Made by a program: the position numbers and the translations under genes
Notes under the pieces: generated by a model
Seen by the model: only the letters and a program-made list of their open reading frames with translations
What the model was told of the DNA's origin: nothing
The model's database searches: none
Assembly: GCA_964594415.1 (NCBI GenBank)
Contig: CAZQLQ010000006.1
Location: 1-54,140, forward strand
DNA from: an uncultured Candidatus Saccharibacteria bacterium
GTDB taxonomy: Bacteria > Patescibacteriota > CPR2 > UBA1875 > CAIMLA01
Length of the DNA stretch: 54,140 nucleotides
Direction of reading: 5' to 3'
Shown here: piece after piece, positions 1,218 through 12,938 of the stretch
Numbering within the stretch: position 1 is the first letter of the stretch
Layout: every line of letters begins with the position of its first letter

Positions 1218-1964
1218 TCAGTGATTCGTATCGCTTGCGGGCTCTTTTATTCTTGATTTTGCCTTGACGCATTCATGATATATAGGCGCTATCTTAAATG
1301 CCAGTATGAAAGCAAATATTATTGCAAACCCACACATTATTGAGGCTATTGCTACTCTAGCAATCGGGATCAAAATATATACTAAAGTAAGCGGCAAAAT
1401 AAAAGACAGATAGCCAATTATAAACCAGAATAATGCCCTCTTTGTCATCCTTTTCTTATTATCGGACCTGATTCCACTGAGTGCTTCCCAGATACCGAGT
1501 AATAAAAATCCAAAGTAATAATAACCGTACAACGAATGAATACTTGAGTTAATATGAAAAATGATATAATTTCCGCCACAAGTGGCACCGTTTATTGTTT
1601 CGGGAACAAACACAAAAAAGGCCACAAAAGCTATTGCGATAAAAAAACCTAGTTTTAAGAATCTGGAATTTTTGTTTAGCTTAGTTATCAGGTAATATCC
1701 GAGAACTGGCAAAAAAGTGATTACGAAAAGACCGATTCTTGACCAAAACAGGGGACTCAGTCCACCACATATCTGGTATTCAGAAAGTTGAAAAATTGCC
1801 AAGAAAACAAGAGCCAAGACGATACCGACATCAGAGCCTGCCTTACGGCTTTTTATAAATACATATATTGCCAGCCCCATCTCAATAACAAACGTCGCTA
1901 TCATTATAGGCGGTGAAAAACAATACAGCGTAGTGGTTCCCTTTTCTCTATCTTTTAGATCCAT
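1218..1964 (-). CDS. Multi-TM membrane protein, resembling a stand-alone 7TM sensor (HisKA_7TM-like) domain
   Basis: 248 aa, about 7 hydrophobic helices, FQLSEYQIC motif, SD ggagg; no kinase domain. Confidence 0.65.
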   Translation of the reverse strand: MDLKDREKGTTTLYCFSPPIMIATFVIEMGLAIYVFIKSRKAGSDVGIVLALVFLAIFQLSEYQICGGLSPLFWSRIGLFVITFLPVLGYYLITKLNKNSRFLKLGFFIAIAFVAFFVFVPETINGATCGGNYIIFHINSSIHSLYGYYYFGFLLLGIWEALSGIRSDNKKRMTKRALFWFIIGYLSFILPLTLVYILIPIARVAIASIMCGFAIIFAFILAFKIAPIYHECVKAKSRIKEPASDTNH

Positions 1965-1988
1965 TTTTCCTCCAGTATTTATTTTAAA

Positions 1989-2594
1989 TTAAAATAGATA
2001 GGGAATGATTCCTCTAGCAACTAGATTTGTAATAATTAGTGCGAATGTCAGGTCGGCTAAAATAATAATTTTGTTCATCTTCACAATAGGATATTTTATT
2101 GCCGCCAAAAAAAGAATCATAATATCGTTTGGTAAAGGTAAAATGCCAATATATATAAATGCTATTACTGGAGTAGCTTTGCCCAGCCACTCTTTACTCT
2201 TAAAAAACTTGGCGAATCCGTTTATCTTTTTATCCCATTCGCCTGTTACTAACTCCCTGCCCTTCGTCCCGATATAGAACATAATCATATCTCCAATGGC
2301 CAAACTGACTCCCGCAACAATCCCCAAGATAATCGGATCGACGCCACCCGCTACGAGAGTAATAAGCAGACCGATAAAAGTCGCCGAGCCTCCCGCCGAA
2401 AAACCACCGAAAAAAGAAACAAAAAAAGCTAATATATAACTGTTATGAATGCCTATGATATCTACAATTTGAGCCGGTCCCACCAGAGACACCAAGACAA
2501 AAACTAATACTAAAAAAGCAATCAATAATATAAATTCTAGCACCCTGCTAGTATTTTTTTTATTGATAAGACCTTGATTCATATTTCCTTGCAA
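1989..2594 (-). CDS. DedA/VTT(SNARE-associated)-like membrane protein
   Basis: Hydrophobic ORF with GxAIGD-x-x-MFYIG and PLPND motifs typical of VTT domains. Confidence 0.6.
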   Translation of the reverse strand: MQGNMNQGLINKKNTSRVLEFILLIAFLVLVFVLVSLVGPAQIVDIIGIHNSYILAFFVSFFGGFSAGGSATFIGLLITLVAGGVDPIILGIVAGVSLAIGDMIMFYIGTKGRELVTGEWDKKINGFAKFFKSKEWLGKATPVIAFIYIGILPLPNDIMILFLAAIKYPIVKMNKIIILADLTFALIITNLVARGIIPYLF

Positions 2595-2697
2595 ACCACA
2601 TCTCCATAATTATAAAAAGTATATCAGAGTTTAATTCATTGAAACAGAATCAAGGCGCTTAAAATCTATAAGTAATGAGGCTATACGAACCAATGCA

Positions 2698-3471
2698 CTA
2701 CATATACGTTGTATATAGCGCATGATAGCCAAAAAGAATACAGTTAAATCTTCTTAATACCCATGCCACTAGTAAAATTCCAGCAATAAACATAAAAGCT
2801 TGCCAACCAAAATTTACTTCATCATTTTGTTTTTCCATATCTGCAAACAGGTCGTGCATAGAAATATAAAGAAACCATCCTGCCAAAATTGCCATAAAAA
2901 TTGGAACGATATTATAGATATCCTCTTTTAAATAATAACCAATTCCTGCGCCAATTATCGTTGGAATGGTCCACAAAATATTCAGCATTAGAGCCTTTTT
3001 TCTAGTTAATCCTGAATGAATTAATTTTCCAAATACCCCGATTTCGTGAGGGATGTCACTAATAGCCAAAAAAATTGCAATTCTCAGCCCGTGAGCATAA
3101 TAGGAAGCAAAAACCGCAATCAATCCCCCAAAGATTAAGTTATGAATAATACTGGTAACTCCTAGTGAATAAATAACAGATTTTGCCCCCTTATCATTCT
3201 TGCTTTCGTGTTTCTTTAGCCAAAGTTCAAAAAGAAACACGGCAGAAATAGCAACCACAAACCATACAAGAGCGACTGTATAAATAAAAGGGATCAGATC
3301 TGGAAGGATATCCAGAAGTGCAGTAGCTAGTAATACTCCAGCTAGAAGCGGAATCAGATAGCGCATAAGCTTTTTAGTTCTTTCATTATGGAACAGAACA
3401 ATTGCGCCTCCACCAACCGAAATGACTCCATTGATAAACGCAAGTCCTAAAATAGTTATAAACTCTTTCAT
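2698..3471 (-). CDS. ZIP family metal transporter
   Basis: AGVLLATALLDILP, IIHNLIFG, DIPHEIGVFG and FLYISMHDL motifs. Confidence 0.85.
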   Translation of the reverse strand: MKEFITILGLAFINGVISVGGGAIVLFHNERTKKLMRYLIPLLAGVLLATALLDILPDLIPFIYTVALVWFVVAISAVFLFELWLKKHESKNDKGAKSVIYSLGVTSIIHNLIFGGLIAVFASYYAHGLRIAIFLAISDIPHEIGVFGKLIHSGLTRKKALMLNILWTIPTIIGAGIGYYLKEDIYNIVPIFMAILAGWFLYISMHDLFADMEKQNDEVNFGWQAFMFIAGILLVAWVLRRFNCILFGYHALYTTYM

Positions 3472-6942: not shown

Positions 6943-7386
6943 TTATTCTTTAGATAAAGGGGTGTGAGTACGTAGGTTAACAATTATTTGAATAATTAAA
7001 AGTCCGAGCATTATCGCACCCCCCATTTGGGAGTAGTACCTCCAAGTCATTATCACAAATCCATAATTCATCGCGTAGTACAAAAATAAGTACGGTGTTA
7101 CTTGTTTCCAATATTTCTTCATATTTTCACGGAAAGGAATTTTCCATACATAGTCATAAAGATACTCCAGAGCTAGAAATGCCAAGAATATACCCAAAAA
7201 GATACTATATCGCACCGATTGCTGTTCCTGCTGAACCAAAAATATTCCATAGATAGCCGGGATTGCCAAAATGAAATAGAGTTTCCCAACCCGTTGTAAA
7301 ATAGTCATATTCTTTCGAATCAAAAAGATGAATATTAAATATAGATTATTTATTAACCCTAGAATGAAAAATAATTCTTCTAACAT
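6943..7386 (-). CDS. Hypothetical membrane protein (leaderless)
   Basis: 147 aa, about 4-5 TM; TATAAT lies 6 nt upstream of the ATG. Confidence 0.75.
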   Translation of the reverse strand: MLEELFFILGLINNLYLIFIFLIRKNMTILQRVGKLYFILAIPAIYGIFLVQQEQQSVRYSIFLGIFLAFLALEYLYDYVWKIPFRENMKKYWKQVTPYLFLYYAMNYGFVIMTWRYYSQMGGAIMLGLLIIQIIVNLRTHTPLSKE

Positions 7387-7440
7387 ACCATAATTATACC
7401 CCTTTTATGCCAAAATGTTCCAACAGCAAATTTGGTATAT

Positions 7441-7464
7441 AAAAAATGACCTTGTTAAGCCATT
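7441..7464 (-). terminator. Intrinsic terminator candidate
   Basis: aatggc-ttaacaa-ggtcatt hairpin followed by a T-run on the minus strand. Confidence 0.5.
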
Positions 7465-7469
7465 AATTT

Positions 7470-7535
7470 ATGGTGGACTACATAAGACTTCATTGGAACC
7501 AGATTGTGAAGGAGATGTCGAAATGGCAGGAACTT
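7470..7535. other. Degenerate tRNA-Ala 3'-end-like relic / conserved short coding frame, copy 1
   Basis: atggtggac..a.gact..gaacc resembles 9401-9426; the + frame reads MVDYIRLHWNQIVKEMSKWQEL. Confidence 0.5.
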
Positions 7536-7546
7536 TGCGAAGTGAT

Positions 7547-8191
7547 TCATGAAAATAGTTCCTTGATATCCTGCAACGATACGAAATTCTTATAAGCAAC
7601 CTCTTTTAAGTATTCTTCTGACGTATGGACGCTTAGCCCTTTGCCCGTAGCGATGAAGATATCAATATCATTTTCACCATCACCGACGAAATAAATATCT
7701 TTGATTGATACACCGTTCTTATCAGCGATTTCGGTGACCTGTTCAACTTTTATCTGACCCTGTTCGTGAATCCGTTGGTCAATCCTTGAAATGATTCCTT
7801 CCTCGTCAAATATTATCTCCGCATTTGAATAATAACCGTCAGGTTTTAACCTTTTCGCAATTCCTTCGACAAAGAACTTGTTTGACCCAGAAACCAAATA
7901 TATTAAGAATCCCCTGCTTCTTAAAAATTCAAATAATTCTTCAACCCCTTCTCGAACATCAACTTTTTCATAAACCTTTTTGAGATTTTCCTGGGTGGCA
8001 TTTCCACTGTCCCTCCAAATACCAACCAGTTCCCTCTCACCCTCTTCAAAAGTGATCTTCCCCGAAAAAGTATTTTGGTAAAGTTCAACGTGCTTCACTA
8101 CGGGACAGTTTAACCCTTCCGTTAATAGCAACCAGGAATTGCCATCTATTAACGTCCCATCGATATCAAAACAAATTATCTTCTTTTGCAT
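7547..8191 (-). CDS. HAD-IB hydrolase (phosphoserine phosphatase-like), leaderless
   Basis: DIDGT motif I, VSG motif II, K, GDGEND motif IV. Confidence 0.9.
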   Translation of the reverse strand: MQKKIICFDIDGTLIDGNSWLLLTEGLNCPVVKHVELYQNTFSGKITFEEGERELVGIWRDSGNATQENLKKVYEKVDVREGVEELFEFLRSRGFLIYLVSGSNKFFVEGIAKRLKPDGYYSNAEIIFDEEGIISRIDQRIHEQGQIKVEQVTEIADKNGVSIKDIYFVGDGENDIDIFIATGKGLSVHTSEEYLKEVAYKNFVSLQDIKELFS

Positions 8192-8197
8192 AACAAG

Positions 8198-8233
8198 ATA
8201 TTAACACAAAAAGAAGCATTTCTGCTTCCTTTG
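8198..8233 (-). promoter_or_regulatory. Terminator plus extended -10 promoter module, copy 1
   Basis: Hairpin gaagc-agaaat-gcttc plus T-run, then TG-T-TAATAT, 6 nt, ATG(8191). Confidence 0.7.
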
Positions 8234-8263
8234 TTTGTTCCAACCAGGTAATCTTTGGTTAAT

Positions 8264-8329
8264 TTGTTGGACTACTTGAAAAATAGTTGGAACGATTTGA
8301 TCAAGGAGTTGAGAGAATGGGAGAAGTTG
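8264..8329. other. Relic / conserved short coding frame, copy 2
   Basis: + frame LLDYLKNSWNDLIKELREWEKL aligns without gaps to copy 1. Confidence 0.5.
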
Positions 8330-8335
8330 AACCAA

Positions 8336-8974
8336 CTATACTTTAGCGGCAATCTCAGTTAACGACGCAATTTTGTTGTCTACACCCTGATACTTATTTT
8401 TTCTGTCAATCAGTAAACCCCCCATACCAAGTTTCCTTGATGCAAGAATATCATCTTCGTGGGAATCACCGACCATCAGAGCCTCCCCTGGTTCAACACC
8501 GAGCTTTTGGAGTGCTGTGTTAAATATCCGACCATCTGGCTTGATACACTTGCAATCATAAGAAGTCACAACTACATCGAACAGATTTGAGATATTATAC
8601 CTATCTTGGAGAGACTTATAGCTCGGATAACTTGTGTTTGTTACTAACCCCAACTTATATTCTGATTTTAACTCCTTCAACACGTTTAGAGTTTCAGGGA
8701 AAGGAATGGCTAATTTGTTACCCTCAACTAAAAGACTACTCAATCCATCGACTAATTCTTCTTCGGGTTTAATGTTTAAGTCATTGAGAAGATTCACAAT
8801 TGAGTCGTTCAGTGTGTCAACTTTTTCAAGCATTAAATGCTTTTCAAATTTCTTTAAAAAATCATAATCATCAAAACTCATACCAATTATATTTGCCAAG
8901 ACGCCGAAAGGGTGTGGTGTTTTGTCGGTAAAAAATAGCGTGTCCCAACAATCAAAAATAATAGCTTTTATCAT
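8336..8974 (-). CDS. HAD-IA hydrolase, leaderless
   Basis: FDCWDT motif I, VTN, KPD, GDSHEDD; start refined to MIKAIIF. Confidence 0.9.
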   Translation of the reverse strand: MIKAIIFDCWDTLFFTDKTPHPFGVLANIIGMSFDDYDFLKKFEKHLMLEKVDTLNDSIVNLLNDLNIKPEEELVDGLSSLLVEGNKLAIPFPETLNVLKELKSEYKLGLVTNTSYPSYKSLQDRYNISNLFDVVVTSYDCKCIKPDGRIFNTALQKLGVEPGEALMVGDSHEDDILASRKLGMGGLLIDRKNKYQGVDNKIASLTEIAAKV

Positions 8975-8980
8975 AAGGAA

Positions 8981-9014
8981 ATAATAACACAAAAAGAGGT
9001 ATTTCCACCTCTTT
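8981..9014 (-). promoter_or_regulatory. Terminator plus extended -10 promoter module, copy 2
   Basis: gaggt-ggaaat-acctc plus T-run, TG-T-TATTAT, 6 nt, ATG(8974). Confidence 0.7.
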
Positions 9015-9032
9015 ATTCTAGTGGTGTAATAA

Positions 9033-9203
9033 TTAGATCTTATTATTCTTAATGTATTTGAATGTTGTGATTATGATGGGTAGAAGAACGATAATAAAAC
9101 CAAGTAATGCAACGCCTGGAGCATCATCCTTTTCACCAAATTCGAGCAGTGGCGGCATTAAAAACACTAATAACAATATACTTAAAAAAATAGCTTTTTT
9201 CAT
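9033..9203 (-). CDS. Small 2-TM protein (DDAPG motif), 56 aa
   Basis: Start refined to MKKAIF; TM-GEKDDAPG-TM. Confidence 0.65.
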   Translation of the reverse strand: MKKAIFLSILLLVFLMPPLLEFGEKDDAPGVALLGFIIVLLPIIITTFKYIKNNKI

Positions 9204-9211
9204 TAATATAA

Positions 9212-9246
9212 AGAATAACACAAAAAGAGGCATTTCTGCCTCTTTT
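9212..9246 (-). promoter_or_regulatory. Terminator plus extended -10 promoter module, copy 3
   Basis: gaggc-agaaat-gcctc plus T-run, TG-T-TATTCT, 8 nt, ATG(9203). Confidence 0.65.
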
Positions 9247-9272
9247 CTTTCCAACAATTTTTTTGGTCCAAA

Positions 9273-9345
9273 TGGTGAACCCTACCCTCCTTCGTAATAC
9301 TACGGAACGGGCAGGCAGGACTTCCTCCAGAGGCGGATAAACTTC
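9273..9345 (-). pseudogene. Degenerate tRNA-Ala 3' fragment interrupted by palindromic inserts
   Basis: tggtgaaccctac-[cctccttcgtaatactacggaacgggcaggc]-aggact versus tggtggaccctacaggact at 9402. Confidence 0.55.
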
Positions 9346-9369
9346 TCGTCCTTAGCAAAATTAACCATC

Positions 9370-9391
9370 AAAAAACCCACCACGTTGGGTG
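9370..9391 (-). terminator. Terminator candidate downstream of the tRNA-Ala locus
   Basis: accca-acgtgg-tgggt hairpin plus TTTTTT on the minus strand. Confidence 0.55.
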
Positions 9392-9401
9392 AGTTGTTTG
9401 A

Positions 9402-9497
9402 TGGTGGACCCTACAGGACTCGAACCTGCCACCTCCTCGGTGCAAACGAGGCGCTCCCCGCCCGTACCGAACGGTACGTTCGGGCGGGTACCAGATG
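9402..9497 (-). pseudogene. 3' part of the outer (split) tRNA-Ala(TGC): D-loop with 32-nt insert, anticodon arm, T arm, acceptor 3' strand and CCA
   Basis: Reverse complement catctggta[32 nt]gagcgcctcgtttgcaccgaggaggtggcaggttcgagtcctgtagggtccacca; lacks nt 1-12. Confidence 0.9.
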
Positions 9498-9501
9498 GAC
9501 T

Positions 9502-9631
9502 TAATAAAATAGAGTTTGCTGAATAATTGGTGGACCTGACAGGACTCGAACCTGCTACCTCCTCGGTGCAAACGAGGCGCTCTACCAGGTGAGCTACAGG
9601 CCCGCGTTATTCAGCAAACTCTATTTTATTA
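9502..9631. repeat. Perfect 25-bp inverted repeat (9502-9526 / 9607-9631) enclosing tRNA-Ala
   Basis: taataaaatagagtttgctgaataa and its exact reverse complement. Confidence 0.95.
9528..9603 (-). tRNA. tRNA-Ala(TGC), intact inner copy
   Basis: 76-nt cloverleaf, G3:U70, anticodon loop TT-TGC-AC, encoded CCA. Confidence 0.97.
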
Positions 9632-9635
9632 TCAG

Positions 9636-9878
9636 TTATTCTTCGATAATTTTGTTTATAAACCTTCTACCAGCCGCCGATTTAAAGTACTTTTCTCTAA
9701 TCAGCGCCTCGTTCAAAGTTTCAACTTTTTCATAGTATTTAATTTTTAATTTACCCTTCATTTTAGAAGTAGTTTTTGTGTGACCTCCGTTATGCTCCTG
9801 CAACCTTCTTTTGAGATTGTTTGTGTATCCTTTATATAAGGTGCCGATTTCGTCTTCTAAGATATATACGTAATACAT
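9636..9878 (-). CDS. Small stand-alone GIY-YIG endonuclease (YhbQ/UPF0213-like)
   Basis: YYVYIL...LYKGYT-NL-RRL-EHN...YYE...EA-IREKYFKS; conserved Y/R/H/E residues present. Confidence 0.92.
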   Translation of the reverse strand: MYYVYILEDEIGTLYKGYTNNLKRRLQEHNGGHTKTTSKMKGKLKIKYYEKVETLNEALIREKYFKSAAGRRFINKIIEE

Positions 9879-9901
9879 GCTTGATATTTTACCACAACCT
9901 T

Positions 9902-9962
9902 AGGCGCTCCCCGCCCGTACCGAACGGTACGTTCGGGCGGGTACCAGATGAGCTAAGGGCCC
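9902..9962 (-). pseudogene. 5' part of the outer (split) tRNA-Ala: acceptor 5' strand and D arm with 32-nt insert
   Basis: gggcccttagctcatctggta[32 nt]gagcgcct; acceptor gggccct pairs perfectly with agggtcc of the 9402 piece; 9902-9950 is identical to 9449-9497. Confidence 0.9.
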
Positions 9963-10169
9963 TCATCGAAATCCGCTGTCAAGCTTCTTAAATAGCTTTC
10001 ACTATTTATTTCGCTTTTACGCGATTTCTCCTCTTCCCCTAAAAATCTACGATTTTTGGGGACCCCACAGAAACGAACTAAATTTCAAAAAATTCTTAAA
10101 ACCTTTTTGTACTTTCGCAACGCTTCCTTTTTCGCAAAAATTTATAATTTTTTGCGAGATGACTTATGT

Positions 10170-10198
10170 ATTTTACTCTTTTAAAAGGATTTTTTCAA
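10170..10198 (-). promoter_or_regulatory. Sigma70 promoter upstream of the split tRNA-Ala/GIY-YIG unit
   Basis: TTGAAA-17-TAAAAT. Confidence 0.6.
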
Positions 10199-10204
10199 GC
10201 TAGA

Positions 10205-10453
10205 TTACATTGCCCCAAGAGAACCGAGTAATCCGTCATAGATGTAATCAGCAACGCCAATCATCACCAGAATAGAGACAATAATCATTAGTGTGCCGAG
10301 AATTCTATAAAAAGTATAGGTCCCTGCCGGGCCAAGGTATTCCTCCGCAAATCCTATGCGAAAAGTATTATCAACAATTTGATGCGTATACGCAACAAAG
10401 CTTGTTCCGAGTGCTATACCAATAATCCCAAAGATAAACTTTCCTATTGTCAT
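10205..10453 (-). CDS. Conserved small 2-TM protein (AEEYLGPAGTY motif)
   Basis: 82 aa, SD aggagg; family recognised as common in CPR genomes (from memory). Confidence 0.75.
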   Translation of the reverse strand: MTIGKFIFGIIGIALGTSFVAYTHQIVDNTFRIGFAEEYLGPAGTYTFYRILGTLMIIVSILVMIGVADYIYDGLLGSLGAM

Positions 10454-10578
10454 ACCCCTCCTGTTGAATTAGTTTACCCGTCGAGAAAATTTCTAATTTT
10501 CTCGATAAAGGAGGAAACGCGATAAGTTGCAGTAATTTTATTATTTAAAATTATGAAACCTGCCAGCAGTTTCCGACG

Positions 10579-10655
10579 TGGTGGGCGATCGAGGACTTGA
10601 ACCTCGGACCTCGTCATTATCAGTGACGCGCTCTAACCACCTGAGCTAATCGCCC
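10579..10655 (-). tRNA. tRNA-Ile(GAT)
   Basis: 77-nt cloverleaf, anticodon arm cgtca-CTGATAA-tgacg, encoded CCA. Confidence 0.97.
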
Positions 10656-10680
10656 GTGAAATCAATTTTCAACACATAAT

Positions 10681-10709
10681 ATTTTACCAAATAAAGGGCA
10701 ATATTTCAA
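10681..10709 (-). promoter_or_regulatory. Sigma70 promoter of tRNA-Ile
   Basis: TTGAAA-17-TAAAAT about 25 nt upstream of the tRNA. Confidence 0.65.
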
Positions 10710-10765
10710 CAAGTAAGTGAGATGTACAAAAAGTCCATCGAAAGTAATATAAGGTTTAAGATGGA

Positions 10766-11230
10766 GCAGTTCTCACATTCGTTCGAACAATAAACCCCTT
10801 GAAAAACTGTTCGTCCCGAGGACCGACTATTTTAAAAAGAAGTTCAGTTTTTCTTGAACTTTGCATCACTTTCTTTCAAGAGAAAGTGAGAAAAGAAATT
10901 AGATTCTTCGACTTCGCTCAGAATGACACTATTTTGTCATCCTGAGGGAGCGGAGCGATTCGAAGGATCTAGAGATCCCTCGACAGGCTCTCCGACGGAG
11001 TCCGACACGAACTCATCGGAGTCGTCGGACGGGATGACATAGGGAAGGAGTGGATCCCTGGAATGACGCCAGGGATGACCACAGCACTATAAAAAAGTGC
11101 TGGGCGAAGCAGAGAAATAGGTAGATCCCCGCGTGCGCGAGGATGACATAGGGAAGGAGTGGATCCCTGGAATGACGCCAGGGATGACAAAAAACATTAT
11201 AAAAGTAGTTCTCTGATTCGCCTCGAACAT
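10766..11230. repeat. Second mosaic cluster of REP-like palindromes
   Basis: Same units as 1-470; direct repeat of about 40 nt (catagggaaggagtggatccctggaatgacgccagggatgac) at ~11038 and ~11146; 10795-10839 matches 54087-54131 with one mismatch. Confidence 0.9.
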
Positions 11231-11264
11231 GATTGGCATTGTAAAGATGCGGGGGTAAACAATT

Positions 11265-11293
11265 AAAAAACTCCACACAAGGCGGAGTTTTTT
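11265..11293 (-). terminator. Bidirectional-type terminator just downstream of the 16S processing stem
   Basis: aaaaaactcc-acacaaggc-ggagtttttt. Confidence 0.7.
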
Positions 11294-11297
11294 CGGC

Positions 11298-12938
<1,641 letters not shown>

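Follow-up and report, generated by a model that had tools for sequence, protein, structure and literature searches.

Two short and similar blocks of DNA lie near a tRNA-Ala gene on a contig of an uncultured Candidatus Saccharibacteria bacterium (CAZQLQ010000006.1 of assembly GCA_964594415.1; we refer to the entire 54,140-nt stretch analyzed as the window). What left them there? A preliminary description proposed that these blocks, hereafter relic 1 (7470–7535) and relic 2 (8264–8329), are att-like scars of successive integrations at tRNA-Ala that may retain the C-terminus of a serine or tyrosine recombinase or, alternatively, that they are expressed micro-proteins. The first proposal is borne out by homology of the relics to the tail of large serine recombinases (LSRs), by a switch of tails among these enzymes, by complete elements in other genomes, and by the association with tRNA-Ala; the recombinase is of the serine and not the tyrosine type. 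Each 66-base block is very probably the orphaned 3′ end of an LSR gene, marking the tRNA-distal junction of an element that integrated at the tRNA-Ala CCA end.

Two related blocks in one genome

The relics align without gaps with 41 of 66 nt identical, as had been described, and their similarity drops off sharply at either edge of the 66-base stretch. Translation in the + frame gives MVDYIRLHWNQIVKEMSKWQEL at the 7470 block and LLDYLKNSWNDLIKELREWEKL at the 8264 block, and the identical bases are distributed over codon positions 1, 2, and 3 as 8/22, 18/22, and 15/22. Within the window, the pattern GAYTAY-N12-TGGAAY-N12-GAR matches the two relics only, with 0 matches in 100 shuffles; across the 863-kb genome, the only second match of each relic peptide is the other relic (E = 6e-4 and 8e-4). 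The core of relic 1 (7471–7499) reads TGGTGGAC-N15-TGGAAC and is followed by tail codons to WQEL and a stop at 7595. The core of relic 2 shows one mismatch to the otherwise invariant core pattern (TGTTGGAC), and the nearest kin of this relic are P0016 and G007:C55.

Relic 1 sits in an ATG-initiated open frame of 41 aa (7470–7595, +) that is convergent with a gene for a HAD-family hydrolase (HAD1) and overlaps its 3′ end. The frame of relic 2 likewise converges on a second such gene (HAD2) and overlaps its 3′ end, in agreement with the preliminary description; this frame, however, runs from 8255 to 8362 (+, 35 aa), and position 8264, previously taken as its start, is an internal TTG at which the aligned block begins.

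The first 9 bases of relic 1, ATGGTGGAC at 7470–7478, are identical to 9401–9409, the reverse complement of the tRNA-Ala 3′ end GTCCACCAT. The wider match between relic 1 and this tRNA end covers 17 of 23 positions (repeat family D10), such that the resemblance initially noticed at the start of copy 1 stands. A 9-base match is weak alone, and it counts because TGGTGGAC is invariant over the family and marks the point where the recombinase homologues change tails. Calling the blocks tRNA-Ala-3′-like is accurate for TGGTGGAC, which has 8 bases in common with the tRNA (up to 13 in some relatives), and not for the remainder, which matches recombinase coding sequence.

Homology to the C-terminal tail of large serine recombinases

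We searched a hidden Markov model (HMM) of 70 copies of the block against 1.84 billion proteins and obtained 107 matches. Most of these place the motif close to or right at the C-terminus of a short open reading frame (ORF) whose upstream extension is arbitrary in length, and none of the 107 is a long protein with the motif at its head. Two matches (P0038 and P0051) carried a real upstream domain, and extension of the frame upstream in fetched loci yielded three proteins of 534–573 aa that end in the motif (L104, L073, and L132). A Resolvase domain and a zinc ribbon (Zn_ribbon_recom) are present in all three and a Recombinase domain in two; judged by this domain content, the proteins are large serine recombinases.

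With the C-terminal 115 residues of the L104 protein as query, we retrieved 85 homologues, typically of 528 aa. All have the sequence ...FPEGISY..GFGTAKLGLIYELNRTxGxxKSx(L/M/V)V in common, after which two classes part at the same codon. Class A proceeds as D.....WNQII.EL..W..L... and reaches a stop ~30 residues on, which is the relic motif. Class B tails read, for example, DPSGFEPLTSSVQARRSTK, DLRRLELLTPSLQTRCSTN, or APAGFEPA, which are antisense translations of tRNA 3′ halves; one such tail, VDPSGFEPLTSSVQARRSTK, is tRNA-Ala antisense. Many further LSRs of relatives likewise end in antisense-tRNA residues. The relic HMM matches 35 of the 85 homologues, essentially always within the last ~30 residues. 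The motif that had been suspected to form the C-terminus of recombinases abutting tRNA ends is thus found at the C-terminus of LSRs, whose class-B homologues read into tRNA ends.

When we placed LSRs on the window by tblastn, tail residues fell only at the relics and class-B tail residues only on two tRNA-Ala copies. Residues 489–522 of LSR P0108 were placed on 7422–7541 (E=2e-5), and residues 499–524 of P0108 together with residues 503–525 of P0140 on 8264–8341; overall, the P0108 and P0140 tails cover 7422–7550 and 8264–8341. The class-B LSR P0186 was placed on 9401–9457 with residues 520–538 and on 9527–9586 with residues 520–539. The same tblastn search detected no LSR body in the window, and neither a Resolvase nor a Recombinase domain was found in the 863-kb genome. 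Because the genome holds no LSR, the relics in the window are orphans and not an active element. As far as homology can tell, the relic peptide is the C-terminal ~30 residues of a ~528-aa LSR family and not a free-standing protein.

Complete elements and a proposed mechanism of tail exchange

Two loci show the layout of a complete element, with a tRNA and an LSR gene at one end and an orphan tail at the other. In the metagenome contig L156, an orphan tail (IVDLVRNEWNQILDELKMWHH...) at 256 is followed by ~9.3 kb of genes that include a ClpP-like protease and a Toprim protein; the LSR gene (8039–9661) ends ...VVDPSGFEPLTSSLQMRRSTN and overlaps a tRNA-Ala(tgc) on the opposite strand (9599–9672). 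In L170/G023, which belongs to the same order as the window organism, a class-B LSR (1484–3031) reads into a tRNA-Glu (1450–1524), and the orphan tail LVDYLRFNWNSLIKELLEWQRL lies 7.2 kb away, at 8696.

The LSR switch point is the codon pair NTG-GTN, the complement of the tRNA discriminator base plus CCA. In tRNA-Ala-specific tails, the next codon is GAC, which complements the acceptor end GTC, such that the codons (L/M)-V-D correspond to NTG-GTG-GAC, the reverse complement of the tRNA-Ala 3′ end GTCCACCA. Because the switch codons are the complement of the tRNA CCA end, we place the attachment site inside the recombinase gene, with a putative attP within its last ~30 codons. A crossover within the short common core would join the body of the LSR gene to the tRNA, producing an enzyme that ends in antisense-tRNA residues (class B). 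The same crossover would strand the original class-A tail, VDxxxxxWNxxxxELxxW plus the stop, at the far junction, beside the sequence that formerly followed the tRNA.

The presence of two serial orphan tails on the 3′ side of tRNA-Ala implies that insertion occurred twice. The outer scar (7470) would close an older, outer island, which now holds HAD1 only, and the inner scar (8264) would close a newer, inner island comprising HAD2 and a gene of 74 aa. We infer the order of these two events, the position of the crossover dinucleotide, and the route by which the recombinase modules were lost.

Several observations weigh against this account. No recombinase gene or fragment is left in the window or the genome, and the link to LSRs comes from homology and from other genomes. 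Serial integration predicts an older LSR ahead of the inner relic; instead, this position holds a short hairpin/promoter flank like those of tRNA-Ala trailers, and an extra step is needed, in which either the recombinase module was lost or cassettes free of a recombinase were inserted. The sole LSR that abuts a relic in the window's own family, in genome G009, is 1 nt out of frame with the tail: at this locus (L051, G009:C122), a 560-aa serine recombinase (1271–2953, −) abuts a relic (1243–1314, −), the frame slips exactly at the junction base, and the protein ends ...ISLGGPPVTSLEPVGS and not ...IS-LVDRLLPHWNQ.... The slip could reflect either a pseudogene, an assembly error, or a hybrid junction. 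Lastly, no member of the class A/B LSR family is present in the close family f1 at E<=1e-3.

Distribution of the relics and their association with tRNA genes

We searched one-genome-per-species bacteria with the strict DNA pattern TGGTGGAC-N15-TGGAAY-N12-GAR-N9-TGG and obtained 82 stretches, of which ~70 are real. Many Patescibacteria lineages account for most of the loci, and Omnitrophota, TA06, and others contribute a few; the family block reads NTGGTGGAC-N15-TGGAAC-N12-GAR-N9-TGG. With a profile of the window peptides, 25 of 61 relatives proved to have clustered copies, the largest arrays comprising 8 per genome; profiles of the + and the antisense frame detected the same loci. A copy typically begins a few bases beyond the stop codon of a convergent gene.

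At 12 of 60 scanned loci, the block follows the 3′ end of a tRNA-Ala (tgc, ggc, or cgc) in antisense orientation, and the same arrangement occurs with tRNA-Val(gac) at two loci and with tRNA-Met at two. The antisense strands of tRNA-Ala and tRNA-Val begin (TG)GTGGAC. A tRNA-Ala with an antisense 3′ relic is likewise present in the close relatives G018, G001, G007, G012, and G008. The window fits this arrangement: its tRNA-Ala ends at 9402, and the two relics have lower coordinates and + orientation.

Other members of the family were noted in passing. At one locus (L080, 6247–6439), only ~53 nt separate a tRNA-Ala(ggc) from the relic that follows it, an insertion scar from which practically all cargo has gone. 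A tail subfamily that reads LVDLMRTQWNRVLKELYDWHTLINSETLKFYGYKPA (L084, L095, L099, L119, L122, L126, L131, and L139) shows high DNA similarity across metagenome-assembled genomes of Curtiss-, Giovannoni-, Azam-, and Sungbacteria, which suggests, from sequence similarity, that a single element lineage has recently spread among distant Patescibacteria. In IMG/VR, the strict pattern matched just twice, both times by chance in GC-rich sequence, and a viral origin sought through this database was rejected on that basis.

Coding signature of the relics

We first suspected that the antisense frame LPFxxLLxxxVPxxxxVV, which has an ATGA overlap with HAD1, was the coding one, because in the window pair the first codon position of the + frame is the least conserved. 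This candidate was rejected: in relatives, the antisense frame is interrupted by TAA, whereas the + frame is open nearly everywhere. Over 78 copies, we counted stops at 1 of 1716 codons in the + frame compared to 48–107 in the other five frames. In 58 moderately diverged pairs, pN/pS was 0.37 in the + frame versus 0.58–1.15 in the others; the all-pairs dN/dS was saturated and uninformative, and the discrimination comes from this close-pair version only. Among the same kind of pairs, the third codon position is the most variable, and Leu, Glu, Gln, and Val codons of the block vary synonymously. The + frame peptides pointed out in the preliminary description as preserved therefore bear a real protein-level signature, as read from substitution patterns across relatives. 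We attribute the conserved frame to selection that would have acted at the protein level while the relic codons belonged to a recombinase, and not to present translation.

Alternative explanations

Could the blocks instead be decayed duplicates of the tRNA-Ala 3′ half, with an accidental peptide frame? They do share TGGTGGAC with the tRNA-Ala antisense, TTGGAACC resembles the T-loop antisense TTCGAACC, and some relatives have up to 13 tRNA-matching bases. However, no alignment to the tRNA extends past 8–13 bases, the T-arm spacing is 5 nt off, neither ARAGORN nor Rfam at E<=10 returned a tRNA-like match (7350–8450), and the other ~55 bases match recombinase coding sequence; we consider this origin extremely improbable. 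The coding signature could also be taken to mean that the two ORFs (41 and 35 aa) are independently expressed micro-proteins, that is, amphipathic helices with conserved W9/N10/E15/W19 at cassette ends. The frame is open in nearly all copies with coding-like substitutions, most copies start with ATG, TTG, or GTG, and some subfamilies keep all 32–36 residues. The same signature is accounted for by the identical residues forming the LSR C-terminus, and further points speak against a separate gene. The base preceding TGGTGGAC can be A, T, C, or G (with CTG in ~9 of 78 copies), no Shine-Dalgarno-like sequence is visible ahead of either window relic, where a hairpin abuts the supposed start, the block matches no Pfam family, and gene callers lengthen the ORF upstream arbitrarily. 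This half of the preliminary proposal, which is not needed to explain the conserved frame, is very unlikely.

A further possibility concerns what the relics do now. Arrays of 2–8 relics, each closing 1–7 same-strand genes, contain almost no recombinase genes; a relic preceded by an older LSR, as serial integration predicts, was seen in one case, G009, and all other relics are preceded by short hairpin-plus-promoter-like flanks that match tRNA-Ala trailers of other genomes. Genome G007 carries a 1468-bp one-gene cassette that is absent in G002 and has a perfect direct repeat of the core, 29 nt long, at its borders, and an orthologous 143-aa gene in G002 and G009 has kept its distal tail with different core-proximal codons. 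Some flanks also hold an inverted core copy, which results in a palindromic site. These features would be expected if the relics were working sites of an integron-like platform, at which recombinase-free cassettes (gene, tail, and core) are inserted, excised, and shuffled at tRNA-Ala and at relics, either by an LSR supplied in trans from a passing element or by excision via an alternative relic. We regard such a platform as rather unlikely. It extends the orphaned-tail explanation and does not exclude it. The difference between G007 and G002 could equally have arisen if homologous recombination between the 29-nt repeats had deleted the cassette, no LSR is encoded in the window's genome, and hybrid-site recombination without a directionality factor is not known for LSRs of the phiC31/Bxb1 type. 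As a whole, the array data fit cassette movement in trans, deposition by excision via an alternative relic, or plain homologous recombination and deletion. Tentatively, and with similar doubt, orphan tails may be live landing pads. In Patescibacteria, a tRNA-Ala and its train of tails and cores would then capture recombinase-free cassettes that are exchanged between genomes by serine recombinases, which would be present only transiently as part of small elements or phages. Exchange of the tail could also toggle the enzyme between its integrated and free forms.

Other candidates were rejected. An SSV-like intN (an N-terminal integrase fragment) does not fit a motif that, in the search of 1.84 billion proteins, never heads a long protein and mostly sits close to or right at the C-terminus. 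Neither an Rfam signal nor a consistent cloverleaf speaks for a tRNA-like RNA, for T-box-like or primer-binding-site-like pairing with the tRNA-Ala 3′ end, or for a 3′ untranslated region processing element, and RNA elements are disfavored because the three-base periodicity points to coding. An integron or Xer/dif module was dismissed in the absence of IntI: the genome encodes a single PF00589 gene (an Xer-like tyrosine recombinase, contig C12), and relatives have one each with or without relics. Nor do the sites have the attC architecture (an imperfect RYYYAAC ... GTTRRRY palindrome whose structure, and not its sequence, is conserved), since they are conserved in sequence and coding-like; the outer boxes TTCCAAC and GTTGGAA each miss one consensus position and are absent from many copies.

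Comparison with known systems

The parent proteins resemble known LSRs (phiC31, Bxb1, A118, TP901-1, and SPbeta SprA) in their Resolvase domain, recombinase domain, zinc ribbon, and long coiled-coil-like C-terminal region, and in the location of the enzyme gene at the end of the integrated element, beside the attachment site. Well-studied serine integrases mostly target protein-coding genes or intergenic sites. Here, in contrast, the target is the CCA/acceptor end of a tRNA gene, and the putative attP lies in the last ~30 codons of the enzyme's own gene, such that integration would replace the tail. An attachment site inside the enzyme's own 3′ end combined with a tRNA-CCA target is unusual compared to ordinary LSRs, and we found no description of this layout, in LSRs generally or in Patescibacteria, in the literature searched, although the search was not exhaustive.

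The nearest analogy is the partitioning of SSV-type (fusellovirus) integrases. The gene of such an integrase spans its own attP and is split upon integration into an archaeal tRNA gene, and orphan fragments near tRNA genes mark old insertions that retained cargo. Those systems are archaeal and use tyrosine recombinases with a ~44-bp core over the tRNA 3′ half, which leaves sizeable N and C parts; the window family is bacterial and would use a serine recombinase with a core of ~8 bp, and only a ~30-residue tail is swapped. Classical tandem islands of tyrosine integrases likewise arise by serial insertion at one tRNA gene, with direct repeats of the tRNA end at their borders and later decay of the integrase. 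In the window, however, the repeated unit is mainly recombinase coding sequence rather than tRNA, and the islands have shrunk to one or two genes. Integron arrays share with the relic arrays the organization of unrelated same-direction genes, each closed by a similar site of ~60 nt, some of them palindromic. Unlike integrons, the present system lacks both IntI and attI, the genome's single tyrosine recombinase being Xer-like and located on another contig, and the site is conserved in sequence, derives from coding sequence, and departs from the R-box consensus.

Genomic setting of the window

On one strand, the genes are ordered 16S rRNA, tRNA-Ile, tRNA-Ala, 74-aa gene, HAD2, relic 2, HAD1, relic 1, and a membrane-protein gene (Table 1). 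HAD1 is the sole gene remaining between the relics. The HAD1 and HAD2 proteins have no detectable similarity to each other, and we rejected a recent tandem duplication of a HAD unit on this ground. The 74-aa protein has no Pfam match.

Table 1. Relics, genes, and flanking features in the window
Feature	Position	Strand	Evidence
Relic 1, putative displaced LSR C-terminal coding end	7470–7535	+	Alignment, tblastn, HMM
Relic 2, putative second displaced recombinase tail LLDYLKNSWNDLIKELREWEKL	8264–8329	+	Alignment, core pattern, tblastn
Flank beyond relic 1	7387–7469	−	Compared with G012 trailer and G001 relic flanks
HAD1, HAD-family hydrolase	7547–8191	−	Pfam PF00702 1e-16, PF12710 1e-14
Flank beyond relic 2	8192–8263	−	Flank comparison, terminator-like site, repeat family D2
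HAD2, HAD-family hydrolase (true start probably at ATG 8974)	8336–8992	−	Pfam PF00702 6e-24, PF13419 1e-21
74-aa predicted membrane protein, between tRNA-Ala end and HAD2	9033–9257	−	ORF
Interrupted tRNA-Ala 3′ part, ends GGGTCCACCA	9402–9456	−	Repeat family D1, tblastn
Intact tRNA-Ala(tgc), carried on GIY-YIG insert	9528–9603	−	ARAGORN; Rfam RF00005, 65 bits
16S rRNA	11401–12860	−	

The flank beyond relic 1 contains a degenerate hairpin (AATGGCTT..AAGGTCATTTTTT) and then TTGGAA-N19-TATAAT directly ahead of the ATG of the gene at 6943–7386. It is homologous to the tRNA-Ala(ggc) trailer of G012 and was also compared with the flanks of the G001 relics at 192607 and 200251. The flank beyond relic 2 consists of an inverted GTTGGAAC, a terminator-like hairpin (8213–8228) with a T-run, and then the HAD1 ATG. 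Its homologues are the "B-type" trailer of the G004 tRNA-Ala(tgc), which holds an inverted core copy, and several relatives' relic flanks.

A hairpin, T-run, and TGTGTTAT motif (AAAGAGGCAGAAATGCCTCTTTTTGTGTTATT) recurs at 8192–8231, 8975–9014, and 9205–9247 (−), 15–25 nt ahead of the start codons of three window genes, and is likewise found upstream of cassette genes in G002, G007, and G009. The motif may combine a terminator with a subsequent extended −10 promoter and travel with each cassette. Terminator-like sites number 7 compared to 1.6 expected.

The array is anchored on its attB side by the tRNA-Ala 3′ part at 9402–9456, whose antisense, VDPTGLEPATSSVQTRRS (ORF 9389–9526), is the same tail as in integrated recombinases. 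The ARAGORN call of a tRNA-Ala at 9402–9477 covers just the 3′ part of the interrupted gene, and the intact gene is that at 9528–9603. The interrupted tRNA-Ala gene (9402–9962, −) has a 32-nt GC palindrome in its D-loop and is split by a 404-nt insert (9498–9901) that encodes a GIY-YIG nuclease (9636–9878) and its own intact tRNA-Ala, the latter flanked by perfect 25-nt inverted repeats. The insert is bordered by a perfect 49-nt direct repeat (9449–9497 = 9902–9950) and resembles a homing-type element that supplies a substitute for the tRNA it disrupts. Nearby, a GC-rich stretch (9262–9345) ends in the tRNA sense sequence ..AAGGAGGGTAGGGTTCACCA and is tRNA-3′-like; it has no Rfam match and is conserved downstream of tRNA-Ala or relics in G018 and G001. 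The window has no 23S rRNA gene after the 16S rRNA, tRNA-Ile, and tRNA-Ala (9402–12860), and the insertion array occupies its usual place.

Implications

On the reading of the relics as orphaned recombinase tails, HAD1, HAD2, and the 74-aa gene between tRNA-Ala and 7470 would be imported cargo of two old insertions, and the "hidden peptides" need no gene annotation. The relics point to a large serine integrase family, apparently undescribed in the literature searched, with a self-rewriting tail at tRNA CCA ends. If confirmed, serine integrases with short conserved tRNA-end targets could serve as tools. The mobile elements of Patescibacteria are poorly known, and orphan tails offer an inexpensive means of finding past insertions by sequence search. 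Control of enzyme activity or direction by the tail swap, or gene capture by relic arrays, would, if confirmed, bear on gene gain in tiny genomes. The relics themselves are scars, and their interest is chiefly that they mark an integrase design that is widespread and little described, as well as cassette-like gene gain at Patescibacteria tRNA-Ala.

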